From assembly GCA_011526565.1 (NCBI GenBank), contig WYBL01000116.1, positions 3,019 to 67,018 of the forward strand: a DNA stretch of 64,000 nucleotides, given 5' to 3'. The stretch comes from Acidobacteriota bacterium. GTDB taxonomy: Bacteria > Acidobacteriota > Vicinamibacteria > Fen-336. Every line of letters starts with the position of its first letter. Within the stretch, counting starts at the first letter, position 1. Below are positions 15,655 to 37,451 of this stretch, one piece after another. A program made the position numbers and the translations under genes. The notes beneath the pieces were generated by a model. The model did not search any database. It worked only from the letters and a program-made list of their open reading frames with translations, and was not told the DNA's origin.

Positions 15655-18600
15655 TCAGCTCGTCACCGTCCGCAGCCGCTCGCACAGCACGCGGATCACG
15701 CCCCGCACGACCTCGATGCGGTCGGCCATCAGCTCGTACAGCGCCTCCTGCTCGAGCCGGAACAGGTGGGTGGCGCCGATCGCCAGCACCGACGCCGAGC
15801 GCGGCTCCGGGTCCAGCGCGGCCATCTCGCCGAAGATCTCGCGCGGGCCCAGCTCGCGCAGCACGCGGCCCTCGTTGACGACCCGCACCCCGCCTTCGAC
15901 GACGATGTAGAGCGCCGACCCCATGTCGCCCTTCTCGAACACGATGCCGCCGGGGCCGACGTCGACCTCCTCGAGCCGCGAGGCCACCTCGGCCAGGATC
16001 TCGTCGGGCGTCTCGCGGAAGATCGACACGCTCTTCAGGATGATCACCTTCTCGACCGTGGTCAGCATCGACGTCCCTCCCGACAGCTCCGCCTCGTAGC
16101 GCGCGATCAACCGCTCGGCCTCGTCGAGCGCGAGGCCGGTGGCCGGCTGGCGCCGCCGCGGCAGCCGGGTCAGCACCTCGCGCACGATCGTCTCGTCGGC
16201 TGGCACGCGGGGCGCCAGCGCCAGCAGCCCCGGCAGGTCCGCCTCGACCGCAGCCTGCAAGGCGCAGGCGCGCAGCCAGGGCGCCGTCGCCTCGTCCGTC
16301 ACCAGTCGCTCGAGCCGCGCGGCGAAGCCCAGGAGTTGATGCGGGAAGGTCGCGCCCAACTTGCGCAGTCGCTCGGCATGCGCCACGTCCTCGAGCAGCG
16401 GCACCACCAGCTTGCCGACGTCGGGGGTCACAAGGCTGTCGACCAGTTCCACCGCCTGGGCCCGCTTCTCCGGCCGGCGGCTCGACAGGTTGACGCGGGC
16501 GCGCAGCACCGGGTCGGGCGGGTAGACGAAACCGAGCAGGCAGAAGACCCGCTCGCGAGCCCTGCCGAACGCGTGGTCCAGCGTGCTCGCGAGCAGCGCG
16601 CCCCGGGCCTCCGCGCGCACGTCCTCGAGCATCGCCAGCACCACCACCGCGTCGCGCACCTCGCGGGCGATCCGTTCCTTCACCTGCGGCACGGCAGCCG
16701 GCGCCGCCTCGAAGCCTGTCGTCGCCAGCGAGGACAGCAGCGACAGTCGCACCTCGGGATCGTCGTGGTCGGCGCACAGCCACAGGAACTCGCGGGCGCG
16801 GGCCCCGCCGATCTGCCCGATCAGGCGCGCGACCCGGCGCTGCGCCGAGCGCCGCCGCTGCTCGTCGGCGGCGTGGAAGGCCTGCTCGAGGTCCGGGAGC
16901 ACGGCGGGGCCCGAGGCGACCAGCGCCGCCATCGCCGCGGAACGGTGGGCGGGCAGGTCGAGGCTGCGCAACAGCAGCGGCAGCAGCCGCGGGTTGCGGA
17001 GCCGACCCGCGGCCCACAACGCGGCGCGCCGCACGGCCGGCTCGCGGTCGGCGAGCAACGCGATCAGCGGCCGGTAGAAGCTGGCCTGGCCGACCTCGCC
17101 GATCACCCGGGCCGCCTCCTCGCGGGCGACCGGTTCTTCGGCGCGGGCCATCGTCACCAGCCGCTCGCCGGCGGCCAGCACGCCTTCGATGCCGCCGTGG
17201 CGCAGCAGCGCCACCAGCGCTCCGCACCGGGCCTCCACCTCGGGGGCGTCGAGCGAGAGCATCACCCGCTCGACGTCCTCGGGTTCGCCGATCGCAGCCA
17301 GCGCCCGCAACGCCGCGCCGCGCGCCGCCGCATCCTCCTCCGCCACCGCCGCCAGCCGCACGGCCCCGAGCGCCGCGCGCAGGCCCAGCCGTTCCACACG
17401 CAGCGAGGCATCGCGGCGCACCGCGGGGTCCTGGTGGCCGAGTTGAGCGACCACGGCGCTCTCCAGCGACGGGTGGCCCAGTTCCTCGAGCACGCCGAGG
17501 CAGTAGGCGACCTCCTCGGGGCGCGGCGAGTGCAGCCCCTTCTGCAGCACGGCCAGGCTGGAGGCGTCGAGCGCCAGCGAGACCCCCTGCAGGTGGCGGC
17601 TCTCCAGCGCGCGGCGCAGCTTCTCGGTGTAGGCGCCGCGGAGCGTGGCGGCGACGACGACCCAGCCGAGCACCAGCAGTCCGAGCAGCGCGCACAGCTC
17701 GACGGCGCCGAAGCCGAGGCCGCCGACCAGGGCCAGCAACGCAATGCCGGCGACGCCGCCGGCCAGCGGGCCGACGATGCCTTCCACCGCGGTCTGCGCC
17801 CGCACCCGGGCCGCGCCGGGCAGCGGCTGGTAGAGCAGCAGCACCGCGCTGCGGTCGATCGAGTCGCGCAGCGACTGGTCGACCAGCTTGGTCAGCGCCA
17901 GCAGCGCGAAGAGCAGGGCCGTCGGAGCCGCCAGCGCACCCGCGCCGACGACGCCGAGGCAGCCGAGCCCGATCGCCGCCGGCATGAACTGCAGCGCCCC
18001 GAGCCCGAAGCGGGCCAGCGCCCGACCCGCCAGCGCTCGAGCCAGCAGGGTGATGGCCGCGACGCTGCCGTTGAACACGCCGATGAACGCGGTCAGGTCG
18101 CGCTCGGCGGGGTAGCGCGCCGCAGCCAGCGCGTAGAAGGCGTTGTCGAGGAAGTAGTAGGCGACGTACGACAGCGCCACGAGGGCGAACAGCAGCCGCA
18201 GGTAGCCGCTGCGCAGCCCGCCGCCGGAGCGGGCGGCGTGGGAGCGGTCCTCCTCGCCGCCGGCCGCCTCGAGCAGCGGGAAGCGCCGCGTCACCACTCG
18301 CAGCAGGGCCAGGCACCCGACCACGGCGGCGGCCGAGACCCACAGCAGGTCGGCGGTGCCGAAGCGCGCCACGAACAGCGGCACCAGCAGGCCCGTGAGC
18401 GCCCCGGCGGCGAGCTCTCCGGCGCCGATCGGCCCGAACAGCCGCTTGCCCTGGCGCACGTTGAGCAGCGAGCCCGAGAGCCCCCAGAACTCGAGCGTCA
18501 GCAGCACGCCCTCGACCTCGGCCCACACCGGCAGGACCAGCGCGACGGGCACGACGTGTCCCATGCCCAGCGCGCCGCGCAGCGTCAGCAGCGTGACCAG

Positions 18601-18879
18601 CACGACCAGCAGGTCGACGGCCAGCAGCGTGCGCAGGCCGACGCGCGCGGACAGGCGCAGGCGCAGGAAGCCGGTGACCGGGATCGCGATCGCCGCCGCG
18701 ATGTAGACCCAGGGCAGGTGGCGGGCGTCGCTGTGCGACAGGAACAGCGCCATGCCCGCGGTGCTGGTCAGGTTGCGCGGCACGCCGATGCAGAAGGAGT
18801 GGAGCATCAGCAGCCAGACGAGGCGCTCCTCCTCCGGGCGCACGTCCAGCATCGTGGCGATCGCCCTGCGCAGCCCCAT
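15655..18879 (-). CDS. polytopic transporter-like domain (MFS / TLC ATP:ADP-antiporter-like) fused to HEAT repeats and a C-terminal cyclic-nucleotide-binding domain
   Basis: This is the only protein-like frame among three >1000-codon ORFs here. It has about 12 hydrophobic helices, central HEAT/PBS-lyase-like repeats (DPAVRRDA, EPAVRRAALWAAGRL), and a C-terminal cNMP domain (FRETPDEILAEV..FGEMAALDPEPRSASVLA). Confidence 0.8.
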   Translation of the reverse strand: MGLRRAIATMLDVRPEEERLVWLLMLHSFCIGVPRNLTSTAGMALFLSHSDARHLPWVYIAAAIAIPVTGFLRLRLSARVGLRTLLAVDLLVVLVTLLTLRGALGMGHVVPVALVLPVWAEVEGVLLTLEFWGLSGSLLNVRQGKRLFGPIGAGELAAGALTGLLVPLFVARFGTADLLWVSAAAVVGCLALLRVVTRRFPLLEAAGGEEDRSHAARSGGGLRSGYLRLLFALVALSYVAYYFLDNAFYALAAARYPAERDLTAFIGVFNGSVAAITLLARALAGRALARFGLGALQFMPAAIGLGCLGVVGAGALAAPTALLFALLALTKLVDQSLRDSIDRSAVLLLYQPLPGAARVRAQTAVEGIVGPLAGGVAGIALLALVGGLGFGAVELCALLGLLVLGWVVVAATLRGAYTEKLRRALESRHLQGVSLALDASSLAVLQKGLHSPRPEEVAYCLGVLEELGHPSLESAVVAQLGHQDPAVRRDASLRVERLGLRAALGAVRLAAVAEEDAAARGAALRALAAIGEPEDVERVMLSLDAPEVEARCGALVALLRHGGIEGVLAAGERLVTMARAEEPVAREEAARVIGEVGQASFYRPLIALLADREPAVRRAALWAAGRLRNPRLLPLLLRSLDLPAHRSAAMAALVASGPAVLPDLEQAFHAADEQRRRSAQRRVARLIGQIGGARAREFLWLCADHDDPEVRLSLLSSLATTGFEAAPAAVPQVKERIAREVRDAVVVLAMLEDVRAEARGALLASTLDHAFGRARERVFCLLGFVYPPDPVLRARVNLSSRRPEKRAQAVELVDSLVTPDVGKLVVPLLEDVAHAERLRKLGATFPHQLLGFAARLERLVTDEATAPWLRACALQAAVEADLPGLLALAPRVPADETIVREVLTRLPRRRQPATGLALDEAERLIARYEAELSGGTSMLTTVEKVIILKSVSIFRETPDEILAEVASRLEEVDVGPGGIVFEKGDMGSALYIVVEGGVRVVNEGRVLRELGPREIFGEMAALDPEPRSASVLAIGATHLFRLEQEALYELMADRIEVVRGVIRVLCERLRTVTS

Positions 18880-18921
18880 GGGAACCCGCGAACGATAACC
18901 GATCGCGGCCCGGCCCCTGCG

Positions 18922-19383
18922 CTACCTCGGGCGGTAGCGCTCGATCCGCCCCCGGCAGCGCGGGCTCCCGCAGCGACAGGCGAAGCTCCAGCGCGGGTCC
19001 CAGAAGTAGTGCTCGGGGAAGCGGGCGAAGAGACGGGCGTCGGCCCACTCGTAGTCGATCGTCAGCTCGGTCCCGGCGGCCACGTCGCGCAGGGTGGCGA
19101 GGTCGCGGTCGGAGCGGATCTCGGCATTGGGCTCGCAGCCGTGGTTGACGTAACGGGCGAGCGTCAGCGGCACCGTCCACTCGAACGGCGCGAAGGAGTT
19201 GACGTAGACGATCTCCGCCTCCGGCACCTCGGTCCACGGCAGGTCGGGCCCGAGGAAACGGGTGAAGACCGTGCCGGCCGGCAGGCCGACCCGCGCGAAG
19301 ATCCCGGTGTGGCCCGCCGTCACCTCCCGCGCCTCCACGAAGCTCGCCTCGAGGGCCCGGGTGGCCGCGATGGCCGCCTTCAC
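18922..19383 (-). CDS. SET domain protein (putative lysine N-methyltransferase)
   Basis: GTG 19383 overlaps the upstream TGA (GTGA). SET motifs RYVNHGCEPNAEI and GTELTIDY, plus a post-SET Cys cluster CRCGSPRCRG. Confidence 0.8.
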   Translation of the reverse strand: MKAAIAATRALEASFVEAREVTAGHTGIFARVGLPAGTVFTRFLGPDLPWTEVPEAEIVYVNSFAPFEWTVPLTLARYVNHGCEPNAEIRSDRDLATLRDVAAGTELTIDYEWADARLFARFPEHYFWDPRWSFACRCGSPRCRGRIERYRPR

Positions 19384-20573
19384 AACGCGATCTCGCGCAC
19401 CGGGCCACGCAGGCAGTGGTCGGAGGCCATCGAGGATCCGTAGGCGCCGGCGGGCAGCAACGCCAGCAGGTCGCCCTCCTCGATCGCCGGCAGCGGCAGG
19501 TCGCGGGCGAAGATGTCGTTCGATTCGTTGATGTTGCCCGCGACCGAGACCGGCCCGGCGACCGGCGCCAGCGGGCGGTCGACGTGGGCGATCTCGACCG
19601 GCAGTCCGTAGTGGGCGGCGTACAGGTTGACGTTGTGGCCGGCGTCGACGCCGATCCACACCGTGCCCGACTTCTCCTCGACCGTGTTGACCTCCACGAC
19701 GAGCACCCCCGCCGCGTCGACCAGCAGCGTGCCCGGCTCGCAGGCGACCGTCACGCCCAGCGGCCCGAGGTGGCGCGCGGCGGCCTCCGCCCACTCCTCC
19801 GCCATCACCGGGTCGTCCACGGCGCGGCGGCGGGCGCCGAGGCCGCCGCCCAGGTTCACGGAACGGACGTCCGGCAGCCGCCGCGCGAAGCCCGCGAGCT
19901 TCTCCATCACCCACTCGAGCTTGTGCAGCGCGCCGCGCTGGATGCCCCAGCCGCAGTGCACGTGCAACCGGTCGACGACGAGGCCCGCGGCGCCGGCGGC
20001 CTCCACCGCCGCGTCGAAGGCGTCGTGGGCGAAGCCGAACTTGGTGTTGCCGTAGGCCAGCTTGGGGTGGCTGCCGTAGCCGATGTCGACGGCGCAGTCG
20101 AGCCGCAGGCCGATCGCCGTGCCGCGCGGCACGCGGCGCCCCCAGCGGCGGATCGCCGACAGCGAGTCGAGGTTGAGGCCCGCGCCCTCCGCGGCGAAGA
20201 AGTCGAGGTCGCGGTCGCTCAGCATCGAGGCGGTGACCGAGATCTCGTCGGCCGCGAAGCCCGTCTCGCGCGCGAGCGCGAACTCGCGCGGGGAGCAGGC
20301 GTCGATGCCGACGTCGCCGCAGCCGCGGATCGTCGCGAGCACCGGCCGGAAGCGGTTGGCCTTCATCGCGTAGTAGAGCCGGAACGGCAGGCCGCGCGAG
20401 GCGAAGGCCGCGCGCAACTCGTCGACGCGGCGGCGCACCTTGGCCAGGCTGTAGACGTAGAGCGGGGTGCCGTGCTCGGCCGCCAGCTCGCGCAGCGATC
20501 GGCCGTCGAAGCTGAGGCCCGCGGCTTCGGCGCGCAGGCCGTTGCCGGCCCACCAGGCGGGGATCGTGCTCAC
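19380..20573 (-). CDS. group IV (alanine-racemase-fold) PLP-dependent decarboxylase, DAP/Orn decarboxylase-like, atypical active site
   Basis: Track ORF trimmed to GTG 20573 (VSTIPAWWAGNG); the 79 upstream codons are Arg/Pro junk. It has the PLP-Lys motif YYAMKAN, GGGLG, EPGT and AGAYGSSMAS. The usually conserved CES(G)D Cys reads NESND here (Asn codon 19527-19529). Confidence 0.8.
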   Translation of the reverse strand: MSTIPAWWAGNGLRAEAAGLSFDGRSLRELAAEHGTPLYVYSLAKVRRRVDELRAAFASRGLPFRLYYAMKANRFRPVLATIRGCGDVGIDACSPREFALARETGFAADEISVTASMLSDRDLDFFAAEGAGLNLDSLSAIRRWGRRVPRGTAIGLRLDCAVDIGYGSHPKLAYGNTKFGFAHDAFDAAVEAAGAAGLVVDRLHVHCGWGIQRGALHKLEWVMEKLAGFARRLPDVRSVNLGGGLGARRRAVDDPVMAEEWAEAAARHLGPLGVTVACEPGTLLVDAAGVLVVEVNTVEEKSGTVWIGVDAGHNVNLYAAHYGLPVEIAHVDRPLAPVAGPVSVAGNINESNDIFARDLPLPAIEEGDLLALLPAGAYGSSMASDHCLRGPVREIAL

Positions 20574-20637
20574 GTTCGGGCTCGCGCAGAGTATAGGCGC
20601 GGCCCGGGCACGCGCCGGGCCGCGGCCGTGACCCCGC

Positions 20638-24525
<3,888 letters not shown>

Positions 24526-24535
24526 CCCGACGAGC

Positions 24536-26185
24536 TTAGGGTGAGACGGCCCCCCAGTCGATCTCGTAGAGGCGATCGCCGTCTTCGGCGACGTGGACGA
24601 GGACGAACGTGCGCGCGGCGTCCATCGCGGGCACCAGCCGCCCCAGCGTCGGGAAGGCCCCCGCGCGCACGACCACGTAGCGGGTGTCGGGGAACCGCTC
24701 GCGGAGCAGCCGGAGCGGCCGCGAGGCGTCGACGTCGCCGGGGTCGCCGCGGCGCCAGTGGTTGCGCACCTGGCGCTGCAGCGCGAGGTTGTAGGGCGGG
24801 CCGAACGCGGCGAGGCCGTTGACGAACGGGTAGCCCGTGCGCGCGGCCCACACCAGCAGGTCCGGGTTGGTCGGAGCCACCTCGAGCACGGGCGCCCGCG
24901 GGCGGCGCACGAGCTCGGCGTAGACCGGGGCCAGTCCCGGCGCCACCTCGCGCACCTTCTGTGGCGGCGACCAGGCCTCGGCGGCGGCGGCGGCCAGCAG
25001 CAGCGATCCGAGCAGGGCGCCGCGTCCAGGGGGCTGATCGGCCCGCAGTCGCGCCGTGGCAAGACCGGCCATCACCGCCAGCAGCATCAGGGCCAGCGCG
25101 CCGAAGCTGCACGGGTGCCGCATCTGCTCGAAGCCGGGCAGGAACGAGAGCAGCGCCCACGGGCCGGGGAACTCGAGGCCGGGCAGGATCACCCGCGGGC
25201 CGAAGGAGAGCGCGAAGAGGATGGCCGCGAGAGCGGCCCACAGCCGCACCCCGGGCACCCGCCGCCGCAGGCCCTCGATCGCCAGCAGCGGCGCCACCAC
25301 GCCGGGGAAGGCGGCCTCGCCGCCGGTGCCCAGCAGCGCGCCCCACAGGTAGCCGGTGCTGGTCAGGTCGCGGGCGGGCTGGAAGGAGTACGTGACCGCT
25401 TCGGCCGCCGAGCGCTGCATCGGGATCAGCTCCGCGAGCGCGGCGAAGGCCCGCAGGTAGGGCCACGTGAGCACCAGCGCGATCGCCGCGGCCGCGGCGG
25501 CGTGGGCGAAGAAGCGCCGGTCGCCGAAGCGGCGCCAGTGCGCCGCGCCGAACAGCACGGCGAAGACGGCGAGGATCAGGGCGTAGTAGCCCGAGGACTG
25601 CGCGCTCAGCGAGAACGACACCCCGGCCAGCATGGCGTCGCGGGCGCGGGGCTTCTCCGCGAGGCGCGTGATCGCCAGCAGGAACAGCGCGATCCAGCCC
25701 GTCGAGATCAGGTTGAGGTGGGGCAGGTGCAGGGTCTGGTGCGAGTCGTGGGTCGCCATCAGGCCCGCCAGCGCGCCGGCCAGGCGGTCGCCCGTGCGGT
25801 CGTGGACCAGCTTGTGGAACGCCCAGCCCGAGAACGCCAGCGCGAACAGCGTGGCCAGGTTGAACAGCGGGATCGGATCGTCGATCAGCAGCCGCAGCGG
25901 CCAGACGAGGATGCCCGATCCCAGCGCGAAGTCGGCGTACAGCAGCGACCAGGGCGAGGGGTGGAAGACGTTCGCGTGGAAGAACGAGTCGCGGAGCAGG
26001 TGCCCGGTGGTCCAGTGGACCGCGAACATCTCCATCGCCGGGTCGGTCCCGGCCAGCGTCGCGCCGAAGAGATCGCGACCGAGCGGCCAGGTGAACGCGA
26101 CGGCCAGCGCCAGGAAGCCGGCGGCGACTGCGAGTTCGACCGCGAAAGGAGCCACCCCCTCCCGCAACCGGCCAGCTCTCTCCAC
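24536..26185 (-). CDS. polytopic membrane protein, possibly GT-C-type glycosyltransferase-like
   Basis: 549 aa with at least 10 hydrophobic helices and a soluble C-terminal region. The N-terminus [21 protein letters not shown] resembles PMT_2/GT-C-like membrane proteins, but I did not assign a family. Confidence 0.6.
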
Positions 26186-26255
26186 CGTGCCCCCACGAGG
26201 AGCGTCGATCCTACTAGAATCCGCGCTCCGCGCTTGGGGACGGAGGCGAAGGACC

Positions 26256-26675
26256 TTGGATCACGGACGGCGGACGTCGATGGCGGCGATGGCGGCGGGA
26301 CTGCTGGCGGCGTGCGGCGGTAGCGGGGGCGACTCGCCCACCGGCCCGACCCAGCTCGTGGTCGAGGACATCACGATCGGCACCGGGGCCACCGCGGCCG
26401 TCGGCGACACGGTCACCGTGCACTACGTCGGCACGCTGCTCAACGGCACGCAGTTCGACAGCTCGTATCCCTCGGGACGGCCGTTCACCTTCCGCATCGG
26501 CGCCGGCCAGGTGATCCAGGGCTGGGAGCAGGGCGTGCCCGGCATGCGCGTCGGCGGCAAGCGGCGGCTGACGATCCCGCCGAGCCTCGGCTACGGCAGC
26601 CAGGCCAACGGCCCGATCCCTGCCAACTCGACGCTGCGCTTCGAGATCGAGCTGCTGTCGATCGCCGGCAAGTGA
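26256..26675 (+). CDS. FKBP-type peptidyl-prolyl cis-trans isomerase (lipoprotein)
   Basis: TTG 26256 with GGAGG 8 nt upstream (ATG 26280 is an alternative). Lipobox-like AAGLLAACGG. FKBP core VTVHYVGTLLNGTQFDSS..GAGQVIQGWEQG..GGKRRLTIPPSLGYG. Confidence 0.85.
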   Translation: MDHGRRTSMAAMAAGLLAACGGSGGDSPTGPTQLVVEDITIGTGATAAVGDTVTVHYVGTLLNGTQFDSSYPSGRPFTFRIGAGQVIQGWEQGVPGMRVGGKRRLTIPPSLGYGSQANGPIPANSTLRFEIELLSIAGK

Positions 26676-26749: not shown

Positions 26750-28609
26750 ATGGACGAGAATCCCCACGCCTCCCGCCACCAGACCGAACTGCTGCTGCAC
26801 GGGCTGCGCGCCCTGTTCGGCGAGGTCGACGAGACGTTCCTCGCCGAACTGCGCCCGCGCCTCGACTGGATCGAGCTGGCCGGCGGCGAGACGCTGTTCC
26901 GCCAGGGCGAGCGCGCCGACGACATCTACTTCGTGATCAGCGGGCGCCTGCGCGCCCACGTCGCGGACGAAGAGGGCGAGCGCGTGCTCGGCGAGATCAT
27001 GCGCGGCGAGACGATCGGCGAGATGGCGATCTTCACCGGCGAGCCGCGCTCGGCGTCGATCACCGCCGTGCGCGACAGCGTGCTCGTCAGGCTGTCGCGT
27101 CCCGCGTTCGAGGCGTTGCTCGGCTCCCACCCGCTGTTGTCGATCAACGTGACGCGGCTGATCATCGACCGCCTGAAGCGCTCCAGCCACCCGCGCAACG
27201 CGGCGCGGCGCCCGGTCAACCTGTGCCTGCTGCCGATCACGCCTGGCGCCGACGGCGAGGAACTCGGCCGCGCGCTGGTCGGGCGGCTGGGGCGCTACGG
27301 CCGCGCCGTGCTGCTGACCAGCGCCGGCGTCAACGCCCAGCACGGGCCGGACGTCGCGCAGGCCGACAAGTCGCGGCCCGACGACTACCGCCGGCTGACC
27401 CGCTGGCTCGACGAGGTCGAGGCCCAGCACGACTTCCTGGTCTTCGTCGCCGACCGCGAGGCCAGCGAGTGGTCGCGCCGCTCGCTGCGCCACTCGGACG
27501 AGGTGCTGCTGCTGTGCGAGGCGGGTGCGGAGCCCGCCGTGCACCCGATGGAGCGCGACTTCCTGGAGGGCCCGGGCCGGGTCGGCGGCGCGAGCCAGAC
27601 GCTGGTGCTGCTCCACCCGCCGGGCACCACCTTCCCGCGCGGCACGAAGCGCTGGCTGGACCGCCGGCCCGTCGCCCGCCACTTCCACGTGCGCCCCCAC
27701 CTCGAGCGCGACGTCGCGCGGCTCGGCCGCATCCTCTCGGGCCACGCGATCGGCCTCGTCTTCAGCGGCGGCGGCGCCCGCGGCTTCGCGCATCTCGGCG
27801 TGCTGCGCGCGCTGGAGGAGCACGGCGTCGCGATCGACTACGTCGGCGGCACCAGCATCGGCGGGGTGATGGCCGCGCTGTGCGGCTTCGACCAGCCGGC
27901 GATGCAGGCGATCCACAACGCCCGCCGCGCCTTCAAGGCCGACCCCACGAGCGACTACAACATCGTGCCGATGATCTCGTTCATCCGCGGCCGCAAGCTG
28001 AAGCGGATCATCGAGCAGGCGGTCGAGGAGGCGGTCGGTTCGCCGTGCGACCTCGAGGACTGCTGGAAGACGGTGTTCTGCATCGCCACCAACTTCTCGC
28101 GCTCGACGGAGATGGTGCTGACCCGCGGCGACCTGGCGCGCCAGGTGCGGGCCTCGGTCTCGATCCCCGCCGCGCTGCCGCCGGTGATCCACGACGGCGA
28201 CCTGCTGGTCGACGGCGGCTGCTTCAACAACTTCCCCACCGACGTGATGGGCCGGCTCGGGGTCGGCAGGGTGATCGGAGTCGACCTGATCAAGGACGTG
28301 CGGCGGCGCCAGGAGATCGACGAGGTGCCCGGCAACTGGGACCTGCTGCGCGACAAGCTGCGCGGCCGCCGCCGCCGTTACCGGCTGCCGTCGCTGACCG
28401 CCGTGCTGCTGATGTCGACGATCCTGTACTCCAACTCGCGCCGCAAGCAGACGAAGCAGTACACCGACCTCTACTTCAACCCGGAGATGGGGCGGGTCGG
28501 CCTGCTCGAGTGGGGCCGCTTCGAGTCGATCGTCGAGCTCGGCTACCTCCACGCGAAGGAGGTGCTCGGCCGCATGACCGACGCGGAGCTCGCCCCCTAC
28601 CGCGACTGA
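26750..28609 (+). CDS. cyclic-nucleotide-binding domain + patatin-like phospholipase (NTE-like)
   Basis: N-terminal cNMP domain (LFRQGERADDIYFVISGRLR..FGEMAIFTGEPRSASITA). Patatin domain with GLVFSGGGARGFAHLGVLRAL, GTSIGG (GxSxG) and LVDGG. Confidence 0.85.
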   Translation: MDENPHASRHQTELLLHGLRALFGEVDETFLAELRPRLDWIELAGGETLFRQGERADDIYFVISGRLRAHVADEEGERVLGEIMRGETIGEMAIFTGEPRSASITAVRDSVLVRLSRPAFEALLGSHPLLSINVTRLIIDRLKRSSHPRNAARRPVNLCLLPITPGADGEELGRALVGRLGRYGRAVLLTSAGVNAQHGPDVAQADKSRPDDYRRLTRWLDEVEAQHDFLVFVADREASEWSRRSLRHSDEVLLLCEAGAEPAVHPMERDFLEGPGRVGGASQTLVLLHPPGTTFPRGTKRWLDRRPVARHFHVRPHLERDVARLGRILSGHAIGLVFSGGGARGFAHLGVLRALEEHGVAIDYVGGTSIGGVMAALCGFDQPAMQAIHNARRAFKADPTSDYNIVPMISFIRGRKLKRIIEQAVEEAVGSPCDLEDCWKTVFCIATNFSRSTEMVLTRGDLARQVRASVSIPAALPPVIHDGDLLVDGGCFNNFPTDVMGRLGVGRVIGVDLIKDVRRRQEIDEVPGNWDLLRDKLRGRRRRYRLPSLTAVLLMSTILYSNSRRKQTKQYTDLYFNPEMGRVGLLEWGRFESIVELGYLHAKEVLGRMTDAELAPYRD

Positions 28610-28616
28610 AGGCCGC

Positions 28617-29576: not shown

Positions 29577-30073
29577 CCGCGCGACTCGCGCCAGGCGGCG
29601 ACGTTGCGCTCGATCTGCCGCGCGTGGTTCTCCACGTGGGCGGCGTAGGAGCGCAGCCAGTCGCACGCCGAGTACGGGCCCGACTCGGTGTGGCGGCCCG
29701 CGCGCGCCCACGCCGCGTCCGGCAGTCTTCGGGCGAGGGCCGCCGTGTGCGCGCGCACGGCGTCGACCACCGCGAGGGCGACCTCCGCCGGGTGCGCGTG
29801 GTAGTCGTGCTCGCGGGCCCACGCCTCCTGGTCGTAGCCGACGATCAGCGGCTCCTTCTCCGTGACCAGATACCGCAGGCGCAGCGCCGCGTTGGCCTCG
29901 GAGTCGGCGCAGTGCACGACCACCTCGTGGGCCGACCACGTGCCGGGCCCCGGCCGCCATTGGCGGGCCTCGGCGGGCACCACCTCCCAGGCCGCGCGCA
30001 GCCGCGCCGGCCCCTTCTCGTACTGGCGCAGCAGGGGCTCGCGTTCGGCCGCAGTCAGGACACCCGTGCTCAT
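29573..30073 (-). CDS. DinB-family protein
   Basis: 166 aa with His-containing helices (WSAHEVVVHCADSE, YAAHVENHARQI), typical of DinB_2 four-helix bundles. Confidence 0.7.
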   Translation of the reverse strand: MSTGVLTAAEREPLLRQYEKGPARLRAAWEVVPAEARQWRPGPGTWSAHEVVVHCADSEANAALRLRYLVTEKEPLIVGYDQEAWAREHDYHAHPAEVALAVVDAVRAHTAALARRLPDAAWARAGRHTESGPYSACDWLRSYAAHVENHARQIERNVAAWRESRG

Positions 30074-30105
30074 CGAACTCCTCCGGCTCGCCCCCGGGGA
30101 ATCGT

Positions 30106-31149: not shown

Positions 31150-31306
31150 AACGAGGCGGGATTGTAACCGCGGCGGCGTCTTTTTGCCCCCGGGCGGTTG
31201 CCGGGCCGGGAGCGGTCGGCTACTTTAGGGGGGTCCGTGCTCTCGCGGACCCGATGTGCGGGTGGCTTTCGCGCAGATCCTGCGGGAAGTCGCCCTAGGA
31301 GTGTGC

Positions 31307-32200
31307 ATGACGTCATTGCCGTTCCGGCGCCCGAGCGCCGCGCTCCTCCTGCTCCTGCTGACCTCGTGCGGCGGGGGCGGTTCTTCTCCGGCCGCACCCA
31401 GCACTCCTCCGACGGGCAACACCACTCCGACCCCCACGCCGGCGCCGACCGCGACGCCGACTCCCACCCCGGGCGGCGGCACCGCGGCCGCGAGCTGCAC
31501 CGCCCTCGGCTACGGCGTCTGGGACGCCCCCTGCTCGCGCAGCGGCGGTCAGTTCACGGAAGTCGTGATGTCCGCCATCAACCAGCTCCAGCGGGAGAAG
31601 CCGGGCCTGTTCGACACCACGCAGTTCGCGGGGGGCAACCCCGAGCAGTGGCGGGTGCTCGACGCGTCCGCCTACTACCAGGGCGTGATGGAGGTCCTCG
31701 GCCGCAACGGCTACTGCGCGAACCTGCTGGCCACCACGATCTCGGTCAAGACCTCCAACTCCTTCTCGGAGGACTTCGACGTGATGCTCAGCTCGGGCCA
31801 CGTCCGGCGAGGCGAGGCGGCCTACCGCAACACCTGCCAGCCCGCCAACTTCCCCGCCAACCCGGTCGAGATGATCAACCGCGTCCGGGTCGGCTTCTTC
31901 GAGATCCGCTGCCCCGACGGGCGCACGCCGCCCCGCAACGGCGAGAACACGCTGCCGATCGGCTGCCTCGGCACCGTCACGGCGACGCCCAAGGACAGGG
32001 ACGACCACGACGTGCCGGCCTCCGTCCACGGCCCCGACATCGAGTGGGAGCTGCTCCAGGACGGCTTCATCGCCGACATCGGCGACGACCCGGTCAGCAA
32101 GTTCAACATGTTCGTCTCGGCCCACAACCCCGGAAGCTTCGAGCTGTGCGCCACCGTGCAGACGATCCGCGGCTGCATGAGGGGCACGGTCATCGAGTAG
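31307..32200 (+). CDS. lipoprotein of unknown function
   Basis: ATG 31307 with AGGAG upstream. Lipobox LLLLLLTSCGG, a Thr/Pro-rich linker, then a Cys-containing domain of about 230 aa that I cannot assign. Confidence 0.65.
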   Translation: MTSLPFRRPSAALLLLLLTSCGGGGSSPAAPSTPPTGNTTPTPTPAPTATPTPTPGGGTAAASCTALGYGVWDAPCSRSGGQFTEVVMSAINQLQREKPGLFDTTQFAGGNPEQWRVLDASAYYQGVMEVLGRNGYCANLLATTISVKTSNSFSEDFDVMLSSGHVRRGEAAYRNTCQPANFPANPVEMINRVRVGFFEIRCPDGRTPPRNGENTLPIGCLGTVTATPKDRDDHDVPASVHGPDIEWELLQDGFIADIGDDPVSKFNMFVSAHNPGSFELCATVQTIRGCMRGTVIE

Positions 32201-32209
32201 GAGGAGATC

Positions 32210-33325
32210 ATGGTTCTCGGCCTGTTCGGGGGAACCGACGTCGGGGACCTGATCGCGAAGAAGAAGTACGCGCGGGCCATCGAGGTCCTCGGCGAGCAGC
32301 TTCGCCGGGGCACCTCGGACCCGCGCGTCCGCAACCAGCTCGCGGACGTGCTGATCATGGCCGGCCGCGAGAAGGAAGCGGTGCCGGTGCTGATCGAGCT
32401 GGCGGACGAGTACGCCCGCGTCAACCAGGCCCCGCGCGCGATCGCGCTGCTCAAGAAGATCGAGCGCATCGACCCCGGCCGTCGCGACGTCGACCAGAAG
32501 CTGGCCTCGCTGATCCGCGACAAGAAGCCGAAGGCCAAGGCCCCGGCGGGCGGCGGCTGGCAGCCCTACGAGGAAGGCGGCCTGAGCACCGGCGGCTCGG
32601 TGTTCGACGCCTCCCACTTCGAGCCCTCGCCGTACACGGGCCAGGAGTCGGTCGCCGCGGCGAAGAAGGCGTCGTGGGAACCCGACATCGGGACCCGGAA
32701 GGAGGAGGCGCCCGGCGCGCCTGCGCCCCCCGACTTCCCTGCGATCCAGCTCCCGCCCGAGCCCGACGAGCCGCCGATGTTCTCGCAGGAGATGTTCCGC
32801 GGCCAGGTGCTCGACGTGATCCAGCAGGTGCTGCAGTCGCCTGCCGTGCCACCCCCGGCGCCACTCGCGACCGCGCCGGCCGTGACGGCCGAAGGCGAAG
32901 AGCCGCTGATCGAGGTCGAGCCGGAGCCGGAACTCGTGACGAGCCCGCTGTTCGGCGACATGTCGGAGGACGAGCTGATCGCGTTCATGCGCGGCCTGCG
33001 GCTGCTGAGCTTCGAGCCCGGCGACGTGATCCTGACCGAGGGCCACCCGGGCGACTCGCTGTTCGTGGTCTCGAGCGGCCTGGTCAAGGCCTTCGTCAAG
33101 GACCAGGGAGCCACCGGCCAGCGCCTCGCCCGCACGATGAAGGACGGCGACTTCTTCGGCGAGATCTCGATCCTGTCGGGCAAGCCGCGCACCGCGACGG
33201 TCACCGCGGCGACCCGCGTCGAGCTGCTGGAGATGGACCGCCCGACGCTCGACGAGATGCTGAAGCAGTACCCGCGCATCATGCAGGTCCTGCAGGACTT
33301 CTACGTCGCCCGCGCGACGGCCTGA
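32210..33325 (+). CDS. TPR-like helical module + low-complexity linker + C-terminal cyclic-nucleotide-binding domain
   Basis: N-terminus KKKYARAIEVLGEQL..ADVLIMAGREKEAVPVLIELADEY..AIALLKKIERIDPGRRDV. cNMP domain PLFGDMSEDELIAF..FGEISILSGKPRTATVTA. It is a paralogue of the modules in 34752..37451. Confidence 0.8.
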   Translation: MVLGLFGGTDVGDLIAKKKYARAIEVLGEQLRRGTSDPRVRNQLADVLIMAGREKEAVPVLIELADEYARVNQAPRAIALLKKIERIDPGRRDVDQKLASLIRDKKPKAKAPAGGGWQPYEEGGLSTGGSVFDASHFEPSPYTGQESVAAAKKASWEPDIGTRKEEAPGAPAPPDFPAIQLPPEPDEPPMFSQEMFRGQVLDVIQQVLQSPAVPPPAPLATAPAVTAEGEEPLIEVEPEPELVTSPLFGDMSEDELIAFMRGLRLLSFEPGDVILTEGHPGDSLFVVSSGLVKAFVKDQGATGQRLARTMKDGDFFGEISILSGKPRTATVTAATRVELLEMDRPTLDEMLKQYPRIMQVLQDFYVARATA

Positions 33326-33363
33326 AGCGGGGCCTCTCGCGAGGCGAATCGAAGGGGACTGCC

Positions 33364-34158
33364 ATGATCCGGGATACGCTCCGCCGTCTCCGGCGACGCT
33401 TCGGCCGTGATCAGGAGCGCGAGGCGGAGAACATGGCTCGCGCCTACGTCGCCGAGCACCCGCGACTCGCTGAAGTCCTGGCCCACGCGGATCGGGTGTC
33501 GGGTTCGACCGGCGTCCAGCTCGCGGACTCGGTGTTCCTCCACAAGGCCGTGCTGCGGCTGCGCCCGACCACGGTCCTCGAATGCGGCACCGGGCGGTCG
33601 ACCTTCGTACTGGCTCAGGCCATGGCCGAAGCGGCGCAGCCGGGGACCCGTCCGCGCCTGGTGTCGATGGAACACGACCGGGCGTGGTTCGAGGCGGCGC
33701 TTCGTGCGTTCCCGAAGGACGAGTTCCCGTTCGTCGAGATCGTCCACTCGCCCCAGGCGCTCCACGGGTACTCGTTCGTTCGCGGCACGGTGTACAGCAG
33801 CGTGCCGACGGCGCCCTATGACCTGGTCTTCGTCGACGGCCCGGGGCAAGAAATGAGCAGCGTGCATCCGCACACGATGTGCAATCTCGATTTCATCCGC
33901 CTCGTGGAGCAATCCGACAGGCCCGTGCGGGCGATCATCGACAACCGAAAGCACACGGTGCTCGCATACACGGTGATCCTTGGCCGCGCCAAGGTGCGCT
34001 TCTTCCCCGGCGGCCGAGGGCAGGGGAGCCTCGGCATCGTGGCACCGGTAACCCGCAAGGACCTCCTGCTGGCGGACAAGATGGCCATGCGCAAGACGCT
34101 GTTTCCGGAGTTCGTGCGCATCGGAGGCGACACGCCGCTGGCCTTCCTGGAAGGCTGA
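33364..34158 (+). CDS. class I SAM-dependent methyltransferase-like protein
   Basis: These are the last 264 codons of ORF 31198..34158, starting at ATG 33364. Motif I-like VLECGTGRSTFVLAQA, and DLVFVDGP. Confidence 0.6.
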   Translation: MIRDTLRRLRRRFGRDQEREAENMARAYVAEHPRLAEVLAHADRVSGSTGVQLADSVFLHKAVLRLRPTTVLECGTGRSTFVLAQAMAEAAQPGTRPRLVSMEHDRAWFEAALRAFPKDEFPFVEIVHSPQALHGYSFVRGTVYSSVPTAPYDLVFVDGPGQEMSSVHPHTMCNLDFIRLVEQSDRPVRAIIDNRKHTVLAYTVILGRAKVRFFPGGRGQGSLGIVAPVTRKDLLLADKMAMRKTLFPEFVRIGGDTPLAFLEG

Positions 34159-34203
34159 CGTTCGTCAGGAAGCTGGGGCCTCGACCGGCGCCCGGCGGCG
34201 TGG

Positions 34204-34755
34204 TCAGCGCGCGGGCGGGGACGGGGGCGCGGGGCAGGCGGACACCCCGCGCTCCGCGCGGCGGGCCTCCAGCGCCTGCCCGATGCGGGCGAGCTGCTCC
34301 GCGCCCAGGTGCCGCTGCAACGTCTCGTAGAAGGCGCGCTCCTCGTAGCGGACGTGGTCGTCGAGCAGCGGGCCGAGTTCGGCGCACACCGGCCGGAGGT
34401 CGTCGCCGCGAACGAGCGCCGTGGCGAGCGACGCGGCCAGGGCCTCCATCTCGCGGTGCTCGTCCGCGATCCGCCGCACGCCCTCGGGGTCGAAGCCGCG
34501 CGCCGCGGGCAGCAGCTCCTGCTCCTCGTCGGCGAAGTGGCCGCGCATCTCCGCCTCCCAGGTCGCGAGGAACGCGCGGGCCGCGGCGACGACGGCCGGG
34601 TCGCCCGCGGGCCGCTGCGCGGCGCGCTTGAGGTCGAGGGCGCGGACCAGCACGCCATGGTGCTCGCGGGAGAGGGCGACGAGGGCGGGATCGCGGCGCA
34701 GGCCGCGGGTGCCGGGAGCCAGCGCGGGCACGACCCGCGGCGGGCGTTCGCTCAC
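34204..34755 (-). CDS. hemerythrin HHE cation-binding domain protein
   Basis: GTG 34755 overlaps the stop of the upstream gene (GTGA). Contains REHHGVL, HFADEEQELLP, DEHREME and DDHVRYEERAFY. Confidence 0.7.
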   Translation of the reverse strand: MSERPPRVVPALAPGTRGLRRDPALVALSREHHGVLVRALDLKRAAQRPAGDPAVVAAARAFLATWEAEMRGHFADEEQELLPAARGFDPEGVRRIADEHREMEALAASLATALVRGDDLRPVCAELGPLLDDHVRYEERAFYETLQRHLGAEQLARIGQALEARRAERGVSACPAPPSPPAR

Positions 34756-37451
34756 GCCGGGGGCTGGCCGCGCAGCTGCGCAGCCTCGGCGCTCTGCGCG
34801 CGCTCGCGGGCGAACGCTTCCAGCACCTCGCGCATGCGCGGGTGGCTCGCGGTACACGCCTCGAGCGCCTCGCGGGTCAGCTCCAGCAGCTCGCCCCGGG
34901 TCGAGGCGATCACGGTCGCGCGCCGCGGGCCACCCGAGAGCGCGGCCATCTCGCCGAAGAAGGCGCCGTCGCGCAGCACCGCCAGGCGCGCGTCGTGGCC
35001 GCGCGGGGTGCGCACGAACACCTTGACCACGCCGGTGGCGAGGATGAACAGGCTGCCGCCGGGCTCGCCTTCGCTGATCAGGATCTCGCCCGGCTCGATC
35101 GGCACCAGCCGGAGCTGCTGGACGAGCGCCAGCAGCTCTTCTTCGGTGAAGCCCTCGAACAGCGGGCTGCCGCGCAGGCCGCTGTCGTAGGAGCGGGCGG
35201 CCGCCGGCGCCGCCTGCGCGCCCAGCGTCGGCGTGCGCTGCACCTGGTCGCGCACGACGTCGACGAGCCAGTCGGCGAAGCTCGCCTCGGTGCGCGGGCC
35301 GCGCGCGGGCGCGGGGGCGACGGGTGGCGGCGGGGCGGGCACGGGCGGGGCCGGCTCGGCGGCGGCGGTCGCCCGCGGCCGCTTGAGCGGCGCGAGGTTG
35401 ACCTCCTCGACGTAGCGCCGCTGCAGTCCCTCGATCTTCTTGAGGATCGCGATCGCCTTCTCGGGGAACCCGCCGCGCACGAGCTCGTCGGCGAGGCCCA
35501 CCAGCACCGCGACCGCGTCCTCCTCCTTGCCCGCTCGCAGCAGCGCGTCGGCCAGCCGCAACTGCATCTTGGGGTCCCACTGGCTGGCGCCGAAGTGGGC
35601 GAGCAGCACCTCGGTGGCACGCCGCCGGGTGTTCTCCGCGTCGAGCGCGACCGCGCGCACCGCGGCGTTGGCGGGCGAACTGGCGCGCGCGATGTAGGCC
35701 GCCTCCAGCCGGTCGCGCACCCGCGGGTGCACGGCGGCCATCGCGTCGAGCGTGGGCTTCGACAGCTCGAGGCACTCGACCCAGTCGGCGGCGACGACGG
35801 TCGCGGAACGCGGGCGGCCGGAGAGCGCGGAGACCTCGCCGAACCAGTCGCCCTCGAGGAGGCGCGCGACCTCGACGTTGCGGCCGACCGGGTTGCGCAC
35901 GTAGACCCGCAGCTCGCCGGTCGTGAGCAGGAACAGGCTGTTGCCCGGCGCGCCCTCGCTGACCAGCACGTCGCCCGGGTCCCACGTGCGCAGCGTCAGG
36001 CCTTCGACGACGGCCATCAGCTCGTCCTGCTTGAGGTCGCCGAACAGGGGCGTGGCCAGCAGGCGCCGGCTCATCTCCAGGTAGTGGCGAGCGTCGACAC
36101 GAACGGGGTGCGCCTCTTCGTCGAGCGCGTCGATCTCGGGCTCGACGGGTTTCGCGACCGGTTCGCCGGGCCGCTTCAGCACGTCCTGGACGAGGTCGAG
36201 GAGCTGGTCGTGGAACTCCGCCTCGTCGAGGCCCTCCGAGCCCTCGGGCTCGGGCAGCAGCTCGATCAGCGACTCGGGAGGCGCTTCGTCTTCGGCCTCC
36301 GGCTCCACTTCCGGGGAGGGCTCGACTTCTGCCGCCACCGGCGCCGCGGCGTCCACCGGTTGCGCTTGCTCCACCTGCAGCGCCGGCGCCGCGGGCTCGG
36401 GCGCTGCCGCGGCAATCGGCTCAGGCTCCACCGTGGGCTCGGCGGCAGGCTCGGTCTCGGGCTCGGTCTCGGGCTCGGTGTCGACCTCGGGCTCGGCTTC
36501 CGGCTCCGGCTCGATGCGCGGCTCCTCATCGCCCTCGCGGCTCAGGAACCCGCGCAGCGCGCCCTTGAAGCGATCGACGCCGGACTCCTCGGCGTCGGGG
36601 CTCGCGGCTTCGGGCGCGGGCGCGTCCGCGGCGGCCAGCGCGGGCTCGGGTGCTTCGGCCGGGACCGGCTCGGGTGCGGAGGGCGCCGCGGGCTCCGCGG
36701 GCTTCTCGTCGTCGACGAGCGACGACAGGAAGCGGCGGAACACGGAGCGCAGGCGACCGCCCGCGGGCTTCGCCGGCTCGGCCGGCGCCTCCGGCTCCGG
36801 CACCGGCTCGGCCTCGGGTTCGGGCTCAGGCACGGGCTCGGCCTCGGGTTCCTCGGCCCGAGCTTCGGCGGCCTGCTGCGCGGGCGACGGCGGGACCTCG
36901 GCCGCGGCTGGCGCAGGTGGCGTGGGCACCGGAACCGCGGCCGCCTCGTCGGGCGGCAGCGGCCCGCCGATCTCGGGCGGCAGCGCCGTGAAGTCGGGCA
37001 CTGCCATCCGCGACAGCGTCTCGTCGCCGGGCGCCTCGCCGATCTCCTCGATCCCGAACAGGGGCGCCGGGGCGGGTCGCGGCGTCGGGGTCGGCGTCGA
37101 GCTGCCCGCAGCCGACTGGCGCGCCTGCTCCTCGACCAGCGCGGCCATCCGCTCCGCGACGTCGGCGCGCCCCGGGTCGACCTTCTCGACGCGCTTGAGG
37201 ATCGCGATCGCCTTGGCGACGAAGCCGTCGCGGCGCAGCTCGTCGACCAGCGCCAGCAGGATCGGGCATGCCTCGTTCGGGCGGCCCGCCTGGATCAGCA
37301 GGTCCGCGAGCTGGAGGCGCACCTTCTCCGAGGGCGCCTTGCCCTCGAGCTGCTCGCGCAGCGTCTCGATCGCCTTCGCCCGCCGCTTGCGGGCGAGGAT
37401 CTCGGAGACGTTCGACTCGATCGGCGAGTTGAGCCAGTCGATCGGCGGCAT
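34752..37451 (-). CDS. large signalling protein: 2 x (TPR-like module + cyclic-nucleotide-binding domain) separated by a long acidic Pro/Glu/Ala linker
   Basis: Start taken at ATG 37451 (MPPIDWLNSPIE); ATG 37514 is an alternative. Modules: AKAIETLREQL..ADLLIQAGRPNEACPILLALVDEL..AIAILKRVEKVDPGRADV, and a second copy LADALLRAGKEEDAVAVLVGLADEL..AIAILKKIEGL. cNMP domains: PLFGDLKQDEL..FGEVSALSGRPRSATVVA and PLFEGFTEEEL..FGEMAALSGGPRRATVIA. Confidence 0.8.
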   Translation of the reverse strand: MPPIDWLNSPIESNVSEILARKRRAKAIETLREQLEGKAPSEKVRLQLADLLIQAGRPNEACPILLALVDELRRDGFVAKAIAILKRVEKVDPGRADVAERMAALVEEQARQSAAGSSTPTPTPRPAPAPLFGIEEIGEAPGDETLSRMAVPDFTALPPEIGGPLPPDEAAAVPVPTPPAPAAAEVPPSPAQQAAEARAEEPEAEPVPEPEPEAEPVPEPEAPAEPAKPAGGRLRSVFRRFLSSLVDDEKPAEPAAPSAPEPVPAEAPEPALAAADAPAPEAASPDAEESGVDRFKGALRGFLSREGDEEPRIEPEPEAEPEVDTEPETEPETEPAAEPTVEPEPIAAAAPEPAAPALQVEQAQPVDAAAPVAAEVEPSPEVEPEAEDEAPPESLIELLPEPEGSEGLDEAEFHDQLLDLVQDVLKRPGEPVAKPVEPEIDALDEEAHPVRVDARHYLEMSRRLLATPLFGDLKQDELMAVVEGLTLRTWDPGDVLVSEGAPGNSLFLLTTGELRVYVRNPVGRNVEVARLLEGDWFGEVSALSGRPRSATVVAADWVECLELSKPTLDAMAAVHPRVRDRLEAAYIARASSPANAAVRAVALDAENTRRRATEVLLAHFGASQWDPKMQLRLADALLRAGKEEDAVAVLVGLADELVRGGFPEKAIAILKKIEGLQRRYVEEVNLAPLKRPRATAAAEPAPPVPAPPPPVAPAPARGPRTEASFADWLVDVVRDQVQRTPTLGAQAAPAAARSYDSGLRGSPLFEGFTEEELLALVQQLRLVPIEPGEILISEGEPGGSLFILATGVVKVFVRTPRGHDARLAVLRDGAFFGEMAALSGGPRRATVIASTRGELLELTREALEACTASHPRMREVLEAFARERAQSAEAAQLRGQPPA
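36448..36483. repeat. 12-bp x3 microsatellite (GGCTCGGTCTCG) within the acidic-linker coding region
   Basis: Units at 36448-36459, 36460-36471 and 36472-36483, the last with 1 mismatch. They encode ..TEPETEPETEP.. on the minus strand. A second 17-bp direct repeat GGCTCGGCCTCGGGTTC occurs twice near 36800-36850. Confidence 0.8.

Follow-up and report, generated by a model that had tools for sequence, protein, structure and literature searches.

Cyclic nucleotide receptor-like proteins in three separately conserved gene units form a loose cluster in a Vicinamibacteria contig

INTRODUCTION

The closest described counterparts of the proteins treated here are the regulatory (R) subunits of PKA and the kinase PKG, the NTE/PNPLA6 lipases, transporters of the TLC, Npt1/Npt2, and MFS families, the Cya2 cyclase of Synechocystis, and the effectors of Pycsar anti-phage systems. 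To our knowledge, cyclic GMP (cGMP) signaling in bacteria is known from few organisms only, and our searches for literature on cyclic nucleotides (cNMPs) in Vicinamibacteria or Acidobacteria returned nothing. Here, we analyze a stretch of 64,000 nucleotides from an Acidobacteriota bacterium (Vicinamibacteria; Fen-336), namely positions 3,019 to 67,018 of the forward strand of contig WYBL01000116.1 (assembly GCA_011526565.1). This whole stretch is called the window, and all coordinates given without a locus name refer to it. Four of its proteins, designated P1 to P4, carry cyclic nucleotide-binding (CNB) domains.

Compared with the described systems, these CNB domains have their best sequence and structure matches in PKA-R and PKG, including the beta-barrel and an intact FGE...PR[S/T]A cassette, and P4, like the PKA R subunits, holds two CNB domains per chain. 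Unlike in PKA-R and PKG, no kinase or kinase-inhibitor segment is present, and the fusion partners are instead a TPR-like head, a transporter, or a lipase. Each CNB domain of P4 has its own TPR head and linker, and the two do not make up an adjacent CNB-A/CNB-B pair. P2 has the same order of CNB, NTE P-loop-like, and patatin regions as the NTE/PNPLA6 family, along with GxSxG and DGG motifs, and its bacterial homologs are named [quoted passage not shown] It differs from eukaryotic NTE in having a single CNB domain and no transmembrane anchor. Homologs of P1 are annotated as Npt1/Npt2-family or MFS transporters, and its N-terminal region is predicted to be multipass, but P1 is extended by HEAT repeats spanning about 500 amino acids (aa) and by a CNB domain, the TLC match of P1 itself does not reach the cutoff, and its gene belongs to a conserved decarboxylase-SET operon. 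Cyclases resembling Cya2 are known here from two other genomes (loci L102 and L031), and neither gene is in the window. They keep the Glu that specifies guanine and have a closely similar catalytic domain; however, they are fused to HisKA-like and receiver domains, whereas Cya2 has CHASE2 and a transmembrane region. With Pycsar effectors, the proteins share the CNB domain as nucleotide receptor, but the window has no TIR or pore-forming output and no adjacent pyrimidine cyclase, and its chromosomal context is conserved.

RESULTS

Five CNB domains with intact cassettes are present in four proteins

The window has a G+C content of about 72%. Genes were called by codon bias and checked against the gene calls on identical metagenome contigs. 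Between positions 15655 and 37451 there are 16 genes, four with CNB domains and 12 of unrelated function. A preliminary description of this DNA, made from the sequence, had listed five cNMP-binding domains in four proteins over this interval, and that is exactly what was found, with Pfam PF00027 above its gathering score in all four proteins (64.8 to 150 bits per protein versus a cutoff of 27.5). When the five domains were combined into a profile and the 64 kb were searched with it in all six frames, matches lay at 15667-16041 (minus strand), 26798-27184 (plus), 32927-33319 (plus), 34791-35183 (minus), and 35679-36068 (minus), within about 50 nucleotides (nt) of the positions first proposed, and no sixth copy was detected. 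The size of 899 aa proposed for P4 was correct as well. The output modules were said to be diverse, comprising transport, lipid hydrolysis, and scaffolding, and the architectures match: hydrophobic segments plus HEAT_2 in P1, NTE_Ploop plus Patatin in P2, and TPR-like heads in P3 and P4.

Alignment bore out the presence of the cassette residues, with the core of Gly-Glu and Pro-Arg-x-Ala intact in all five domains and residues G78, E79, P87, R88, and A90 of the five-domain alignment invariant. The nearest solved relatives by sequence were the CNB domains of PKG and of PKA regulatory subunits. Judged from these sequence features, the five are genuine PKA/PKG-like cNMP receptor domains, fused to different outputs. 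They are not equally distant from one another. CNB identity is 45 to 46% within P3/P4 and 24 to 26% from P3/P4 to P1 and P2. In BLASTP, P3 matched P4 twice with its head (E values of 1e-23 and 4e-12; P4 residues 13-115 and 603-691) and twice with its CNB domain (4e-43 and 7e-33; P4 residues 460-592 and 762-887; 40 to 46% identity), and P4 is thus a tandem duplication of the P3 module. Because P4 repeats that module and the CNB domains of the two proteins are akin, the five domains amount to three independent origins.

The receptor genes belong to three separately conserved units

Each of the four CNB genes belongs to a different transcription unit, two on each strand. The first, on the minus strand, runs from a membrane protein through a DUF255/aldo-keto reductase fusion, a decarboxylase, and a SET protein to P1. 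The second and third, both on the plus strand, are FKBP followed by P2 and a lipoprotein followed by P3, and the fourth, on the minus strand, is P4 followed by a hemerythrin gene that overlaps it in GTGA. Interspersed among these units are genes that Pfam assigns to TerB, cupin, DinB, homoserine dehydrogenase, and methyltransferase families.

Loci of relatives are numbered with the prefix L. Full co-linearity was seen in a JGI contig of 62 kb and in the genus-level relative L007 (about 86% aa identity), where it extends throughout except for a missing methyltransferase gene, and in these two alone. In L013 and L014 (P1 identities of 55% and 50%), the decarboxylase-SET-P1 operon is intact and no other CNB gene was found within 10 kb to either side; L014 additionally keeps the CHASE8 kinase and a TonB-dependent receptor on the far side of P1. 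L010 (P3 identity of 54%) retains the series homoserine dehydrogenase, lipoprotein, P3, P4, and suf operon, and lacks P2. The nearest relatives of P2 outside the genus (57% and 54%; L015 and L016) stand in unrelated neighborhoods, and in the commonest P3-like subfamily (47 to 49% identity) the gene stands alone. There are, then, three separately conserved units: (A) decarboxylase-SET-P1, (B) P2, and (C) lipoprotein-P3 and P4 by suf. Their grouping held at about 86% identity in L007 and was lost at 50 to 57% (L010, L013, L014, L015, and L016). Since the units lie apart in the next-closest relatives, the arrangement in the window is that of two conserved syntenic blocks joined via a P2-bearing segment.

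The upstream regions of the CNB units have no conserved promoter motif in common. Two shared 10-mers occur at about chance level and are missing in L007, which is 86% identical, and in L010. Neither a CRP-like site nor a sigma-70-like promoter was found in these regions. An intergenic region of 94 nt (26186-26279) separates the divergently oriented P1 operon and FKBP-P2 unit.

The same effector families adjoin class III cyclases in other genomes

The preliminary description had noted no cyclase or phosphodiesterase in the window, and the 64 kb indeed contain none detectable by Pfam or NCBIfam, by tblastn, or by a cyclase profile. Pfam and NCBIfam scans of the roughly 60 open reading frames, about a dozen of which have no family assignment, gave no Guanylate_cyc, CYTH, PDEase, Metallophos, or HD match. 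Three class III cyclases from relatives, compared with the window by tblastn and as a small profile, matched only histidine kinases, through their HisKA parts. No CNB-type transcription factor was found in the 64 kb. A cyclase was also sought past the window edges on identical contigs (up to 10 kb around the query gene), which gave nothing new on the left and only toxin-antitoxin or defense-like genes on the right. Two unannotated proteins, of 297 and 549 aa, were considered as hidden cyclases and rejected, the former being a lipoprotein and the latter a polytopic membrane protein. GAF domains in some proteins bind cyclic nucleotides, and the window encodes a GAF-domain histidine kinase (1705-3195, plus strand) and a GAF-SpoIIE (PP2C) phosphatase (8178-9422, minus strand).

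Two distant P1-type paralogs, L101 and L102, were picked solely because their contigs are long. In L101, a Vicinamibacteria metagenome-assembled genome (977-kb contig), the P1-type protein is 36% identical and has a hybrid histidine kinase gene directly upstream; a P3-type TPR-CNB gene and a gene for a 224-aa CNB protein lie 4 to 6 kb from the transporter, all within 9 kb. In L102, also at 36% identity, the divergent neighbor of the P1-type gene encodes a HisKA-receiver-Guanylate_cyc protein (7908-9662 of that locus, minus strand), preceded by two histidine kinase genes and a response regulator gene, and a P2-type cNMP-NTE-patatin gene lies 7.3 kb downstream. Upstream of this P2-type gene as called, CNB-like fragments occur in several frames (22472-23257, minus strand), which suggests either assembly frameshifts or a second N-terminal CNB domain. 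Searching the collected loci with the L102 cyclase brought up two further cases. A 53%-identical ortholog in L031 (7689-9533, plus strand) starts 14 nt downstream of a P3-type gene, and, in L008, a gap of 24 nt separates a P2-type gene from the gene of a cyclase-AAA_16 protein downstream. Each effector family, P1-, P2-, and P3-type, therefore directly adjoins a class III cyclase in some genome (L102, L008, and L031, respectively). The 90%-identity cluster of the L031-type TPR-CNB protein comprises 54 members, and 12 contigs carry the L031 cyclase. The second-messenger source, earlier described as unknown, is thereby narrowed to a candidate, a HisKA-receiver-Cya2-like cyclase found beside P1- and P3-type genes elsewhere; what stands of the earlier statement is that the window itself has no such gene.

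Loose clustering is favored over coincidence and over a signaling island

To gauge how unusual the cluster is, 80 metagenome loci anchored on P3-type CNB domains (491 kb of flank) served as the baseline, in place of the source genome's own CNB count. The metagenome scan was seeded with three P3-type domains, the five-domain alignment being too divergent. With the local profile, one extra separate CNB unit was found in the 491 kb of flank, and this unit is a divergent pair of the P3/P4 kind. Among the 29 loci of at least 8 kb, none had three or more CNB genes, and a local scan of the 80 loci found no P1-type or P2-type gene. At one extra unit per 491 kb, a measured baseline of about 0.2 per 100 kb, it is unusual for 22 kb to contain four CNB genes or three independent units. 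A scan statistic for clusters of at least three units within 22 kb gives 0.005 to 0.07 expected per genome if the genome has 10 to 20 CNB units, 0.12 to 0.24 if it has 30, and 0.5 to 1 if it has 50. The statistics by themselves do not decide between chance and association.

We consider, with modest confidence, that the four cNMP receptors belong to three separately conserved units, that their clustering is loose, and that their cyclase is encoded elsewhere. The strongest competitor is pure coincidence, in which three unrelated cNMP-effector loci were joined by rearrangement within a single lineage whose genome is CNB-rich and their proximity is without functional meaning. The separation of the units in the next-closest relatives, the intervening genes, which are unrelated housekeeping or stress genes, and the lack of a conserved shared promoter motif are all what coincidence would give. 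The window was moreover selected post hoc from a scan of many windows, and for about 50 CNB units the scan statistic expects 0.5 to 1 such clusters per genome. The measured baseline points instead to the lowest of the expectations given above, 0.005 to 0.07 per genome, and the families pair up again in independent settings, where a P1-type gene is accompanied by a P3-type gene (L101) or by a P2-type gene (L102). Under random placement with at most five copies per family, we put this recurrence at about 1 in 1,000, a rough estimate of our own rather than a formal test. These pairings argue for a real but weak tendency of the effector genes to lie near one another, and we hold pure chance to be unlikely.

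Still less probable is the opposite extreme, a dedicated and co-regulated cNMP signaling island that serves one pathway and whose proximity is under selection. The preliminary description had gone some way toward it in suggesting a neighborhood devoted to cAMP/cGMP signaling. Part of that suggestion stands: the receptors are by all indications genuine, their density (4 of 16 genes) is far above the measured baseline, two of the units diverge from one 94-nt region, and L101 and L102 have comparable groupings, of which one includes a cyclase. The devotion does not stand. The division into four units on the two strands, the 12 unrelated genes interspersed, and the lack of a conserved shared promoter motif argue against a dedicated neighborhood, and three of the five CNB domains, those of P3 and P4, have one duplication history in common. 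Sixty-four kilobases without a cyclase, a phosphodiesterase, or a CNB-type transcription factor, a grouping that the relatives at 50 to 57% identity no longer have, and shared 10-mers that even the 86%-identical relative lacks make an island improbable. The cluster is a loose, lineage-specific aggregation, neither operon nor island, and fits a wider, weak tendency of such genes to lie near one another and near class III cyclases.

cGMP is a candidate ligand for P3 and P1

The catalytic domain of the L102 and L031 cyclases has its best Protein Data Bank (PDB) match in 2W01, Cya2 of Synechocystis (E value of 2.5e-60). In Cya2, the substitution E488K alone converts the guanylate cyclase into an adenylate cyclase (PMC5995499). 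Both cyclases keep the Glu equivalent to E488; that of L031 keeps the Gly, Asn, and Arg positions of Cya2 too, and that of L102 has an Ala and an Asn-to-Val change. On the receptor side, Arg308 of P3, nine residues before the cassette Gly, is invariant in 55 homologs and is aligned by HMMER with R473 of PfPKG, whose equivalent in human PKG, R297, makes contact with the guanine base (PMC8931422). In addition, P3 carries the Thr of PRTAT. P1 (cassette FGEMAALDPEPRSAS; Leu-Arg at the position of PKG beta5) and its orthologs have the beta5 Arg as well, as do the L031 and L101 proteins of the P3 type; the P1-type protein of L101 is without it. Because the cyclases keep the guanine-specifying Glu and P3 and P1 carry the beta5 Arg, we infer that cGMP is a plausible, though unproven, messenger for these two proteins.

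P1 and its decarboxylase-SET operon

P1 (1,074 aa; 15655-18879, minus strand) consists of a putatively multipass N-terminal region (17620-18879), HEAT repeats (about 16090-17580), and the CNB domain at 15667-16041. Pfam matches are cNMP_binding (E value of 7.4e-18; aa 974-1053) and HEAT_2 (7.8e-19); a TLC match (15.6 bits; E value of 0.0074) is below the cutoff of 21 bits. A hydropathy scan, taken alone, gives about 10 to 12 overlapping hydrophobic segments in aa 76-417. Homologs are named Npt1/Npt2-family or MFS transporters and match PF03219 and PF07690, with TLC faint and MFS_1 weak. P1 may be called transporter-like, with membership in the TLC/Npt family unproven.

Upstream of P1 are genes for a LysA-like, pyridoxal phosphate-dependent decarboxylase (19380-20573, minus strand; Pfam Orn_Arg_deC_N/Orn_DAP_Arg_deC), which scored 216 bits against TIGR01048 lysA, under the cutoff of 298, and for a SET-domain protein (18922-19383, minus strand; Pfam SET). 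These two genes share 4 nt, and a gap of 42 nt precedes P1. The same order is found in L007, L013 (8120-13192), and L014 (8831-13189), and so is kept at 50 to 55% identity. The evidence for this linkage is stronger than that for the CNB cluster, and the linkage hints that P1 moves the substrate or product of the decarboxylase. Farther upstream in the operon, between the decarboxylase gene and P2, lie a protein in which a DUF255 thioredoxin-like domain is fused to an aldo/keto reductase domain (1,295 aa; 20638-24525, minus strand) and the polytopic membrane protein of 549 aa (24536-26185), recognized from its sequence and without family assignment. On the other side, convergent with P1 across a 7-nt gap, is a CHASE8-HAMP histidine kinase (14106-15647, plus strand; Pfam). 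This kinase is a conserved neighbor of P1, with the same arrangement in L014, and histidine kinases of the same subfamily (core identity of 52 to 62%) flank the P1-type genes of L101 and L102.

P2, an NTE-type lipase

P2 (619 aa; 26750-28609, plus strand) is preceded by an FKBP gene (26280-26675) that ends 74 nt upstream. Pfam assigns its regions to cNMP_binding (PF00027; aa 42-126; E value of 2.3e-24), NTE_Ploop (PF24179; 158-319; 4.1e-20), and Patatin (PF01734; 336-499; 4.4e-29), corresponding to a CNB domain at 26798-27184, an NTE P-loop-like region at 27221-27706, and patatin at 27755-28246. The catalytic motifs are legible in the translation as SGGGARG (GGGxRG), GTSIG (GxSxG), and VDGG (DGG). 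More than 5,000 homologs have this architecture, and the family spans phyla, with Acidovorax proteins about 52% identical. P2 is predicted to be an ordinary NTE-type cNMP-patatin lipase.

A role for P2 as a CBASS or Pycsar defense lipase was considered and rejected, the CBASS lipase model scoring 27.8 bits against a cutoff of 200 with no CD-NTase nearby. PADLOC matched Pycsar CNB-TIR effector models (PycTIR; E value of 2.9e-18 for P2) over their CNB portion only (profile positions of about 26-150). Because such matches cover the CNB domain alone and no TIR, pyrimidine cyclase, or CD-NTase is present, we reject the reading of the region as a defense locus. That the CNB folds sense another ligand altogether, either cCMP/cUMP as in Pycsar or a non-nucleotide as in certain CRP/FNR-family sensors, with P2 possibly a defense lipase, could appeal to the PADLOC matches and to the weak NCBIfam similarity to the CBASS lipase, but we judge it very improbable, since the matches are confined to the CNB part, the surroundings have neither a TIR domain nor a Pycsar cyclase or CD-NTase, the lipase score is far under its cutoff, all five domains keep the residues for binding a cyclic phosphate, the genes are chromosomally stable and widely conserved, and the recurrent neighbors are purine-type class III cyclases.

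P3, P4, and the suf neighborhood

P3 (371 aa, soluble; 32210-33325, plus strand) has a TPR-like head (32231-32524), a low-complexity linker, and its CNB domain at 32927-33319, with Pfam matches to TPR_19 (E value of 5.7e-8) and cNMP_binding (1.3e-21; aa 266-354). It has 935 homologs, all in Vicinamibacteria wherever named. In an AlphaFold model built with 55 homologs (mean pLDDT of 72.5), a six-helix head (residues 8-105) and the CNB domain (246-371) reach about 90 and the linker stays below 50. The CNB domain of P3, the sole one modeled of the five, fits an eight-stranded beta-barrel with flanking helices. Foldseek matched this domain to CRP, HCN, PKG, and MloK1 in the PDB (E value of about 1e-11; query TM-score of at most 0.31); in this fold search, matches were limited to the CNB part, and no solved structure pairs a TPR-like head with a CNB domain. 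Within the linker are two short helices (32639-32668 and 32786-32833; aa 144-153 and 193-208), and residues in or near them, such as A154, W156, and P158, are conserved or invariant over the 55 homologs. These helices may be a docking or autoinhibitory motif.

Nine nucleotides upstream of P3 is the gene of the predicted lipoprotein (297 aa; 31307-32200, plus strand), with a signal peptide and the lipobox LLTSC and without a Pfam or NCBIfam match. It is kept in L007 (77% identity) and L010 (40%). Upstream of this pair, a palindrome, GGGTCCG-N8-CGGACCC, is found at 31231-31252; it is imperfect in L007 and absent in L010. Downstream, between P3 and the hemerythrin gene, a methyltransferase-like gene (241 aa; 33433-34158, plus strand) is missing from the 86%-identical L007 and is probably a recent insertion.

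P4 (34752-37451, minus strand) matched cNMP_binding in two stretches (E value of 1.5e-44) and comprises head 1 (37107-37415), CNB 1 (35679-36068), head 2 (35379-35645), and CNB 2 (34791-35183). Orthologs are present in L007 and L010 (877 aa). The hemerythrin-domain protein (34204-34755, minus strand; Pfam Hemerythrin, 4.3e-14), translationally coupled to P4 through the GTGA overlap, is present in L007 and absent in L010. TPR-CNB genes adjoin sufB in several lineages (34752-37603 in the window, 11109-14001 in L010, 1023-3774 in L038, and 41-1965 in L044); in the window, L007, L010, and L038, the two genes diverge, and in L044 they run in the same direction. Between the TPR-CNB gene and suf there is a strongly conserved element in the suf promoter region (37522-37553 in the window, AACTTGACTTTTTAGTCCAGATTGCCGATTCT). 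The TPR-CNB family may be linked to Fe-S cluster assembly, or this may merely be inherited synteny. The suf genes of L010 are fragmented.

The right end of the window

From about 57000 to 64000, codon bias is weaker, and defense or toxin-antitoxin-like genes are present. Among these are an IetA-type AAA ATPase (62996-63982; PADLOC E value of 1.4e-70), for which no IetS partner was identified, and a NADAR/DarT-associated protein (62537-62923). A HicA toxin is encoded just past the window end on identical contigs.

DISCUSSION

The mechanism that we infer for this loose set of receptors begins outside the window. The likeliest source would be a class III cyclase of the Cya2 type with HisKA and receiver domains, controlled by a phosphorelay and encoded at another place in the genome. 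A nucleotide bound at the phosphate-binding cassette would reposition the C-terminal helix, or lid, of each CNB domain, and the movement of the lid would relieve or impose inhibition on the attached module, affecting transport in P1, lipid hydrolysis in P2, and partner binding in P3 and P4. In P3, the shift of the CNB C-helix would make the TPR head, or the conserved linker helices, more or less accessible to a partner. The 22-kb proximity would have arisen when the two syntenic blocks and the P2-bearing segment were joined in one genus-level lineage.

Several observations weigh against this picture, some on the side of the clustering and some on that of the ligand. The two nearest of the four P1-type contexts that were not ascertained through the cluster (L013 and L014) show no co-localization, and a P1-type gene was found in none of the 80 P3-anchored and none of the four P2-anchored loci. 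With some 50 or more CNB genes per genome, a three-unit cluster would be expected by chance. The local CNB profile missed the 224-aa protein of L101, which Pfam detects, and because the profile overlooks divergent CNB domains, the baseline density is a lower bound. As for the cyclases, that of L102 has Val replacing the catalytic Asn, and the taxonomic placement of L102 and L031 is not established. The beta5 Arg is missing from P2, from the second CNB domain of P4, and from the P1-type protein of L102, the very neighbor of the cyclase, and in the first CNB domain of P4 the Arg is one residue out of register.

Taken further, the same comparisons would give a pathway in Vicinamibacteria and related soil bacteria that leads from a phosphorelay to cGMP, with a HisKA-receiver-Cya2-like cyclase as the source and receptors of the P1 to P4 types as the readers. 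We offer this extension tentatively and consider it rather doubtful as a whole. The proteins themselves belong to known kinds, namely CNB-regulated effectors, and the cluster is not a new kind of system.

Cyclic nucleotide signaling in Acidobacteriota is essentially unstudied, and the region is a compact set of testable receptors for transport, lipid hydrolysis, and protein scaffolding. The comparative data supply both a concrete candidate for the source enzyme, the Cya2-like cyclase with its receiver domain, and a candidate ligand. With more than 900 members, the TPR-linker-CNB family would be a new type of cNMP-controlled adaptor. If the proposed cGMP pathway is true, the window would hold the effectors of a bacterial cGMP network in a major soil phylum that has been little studied.

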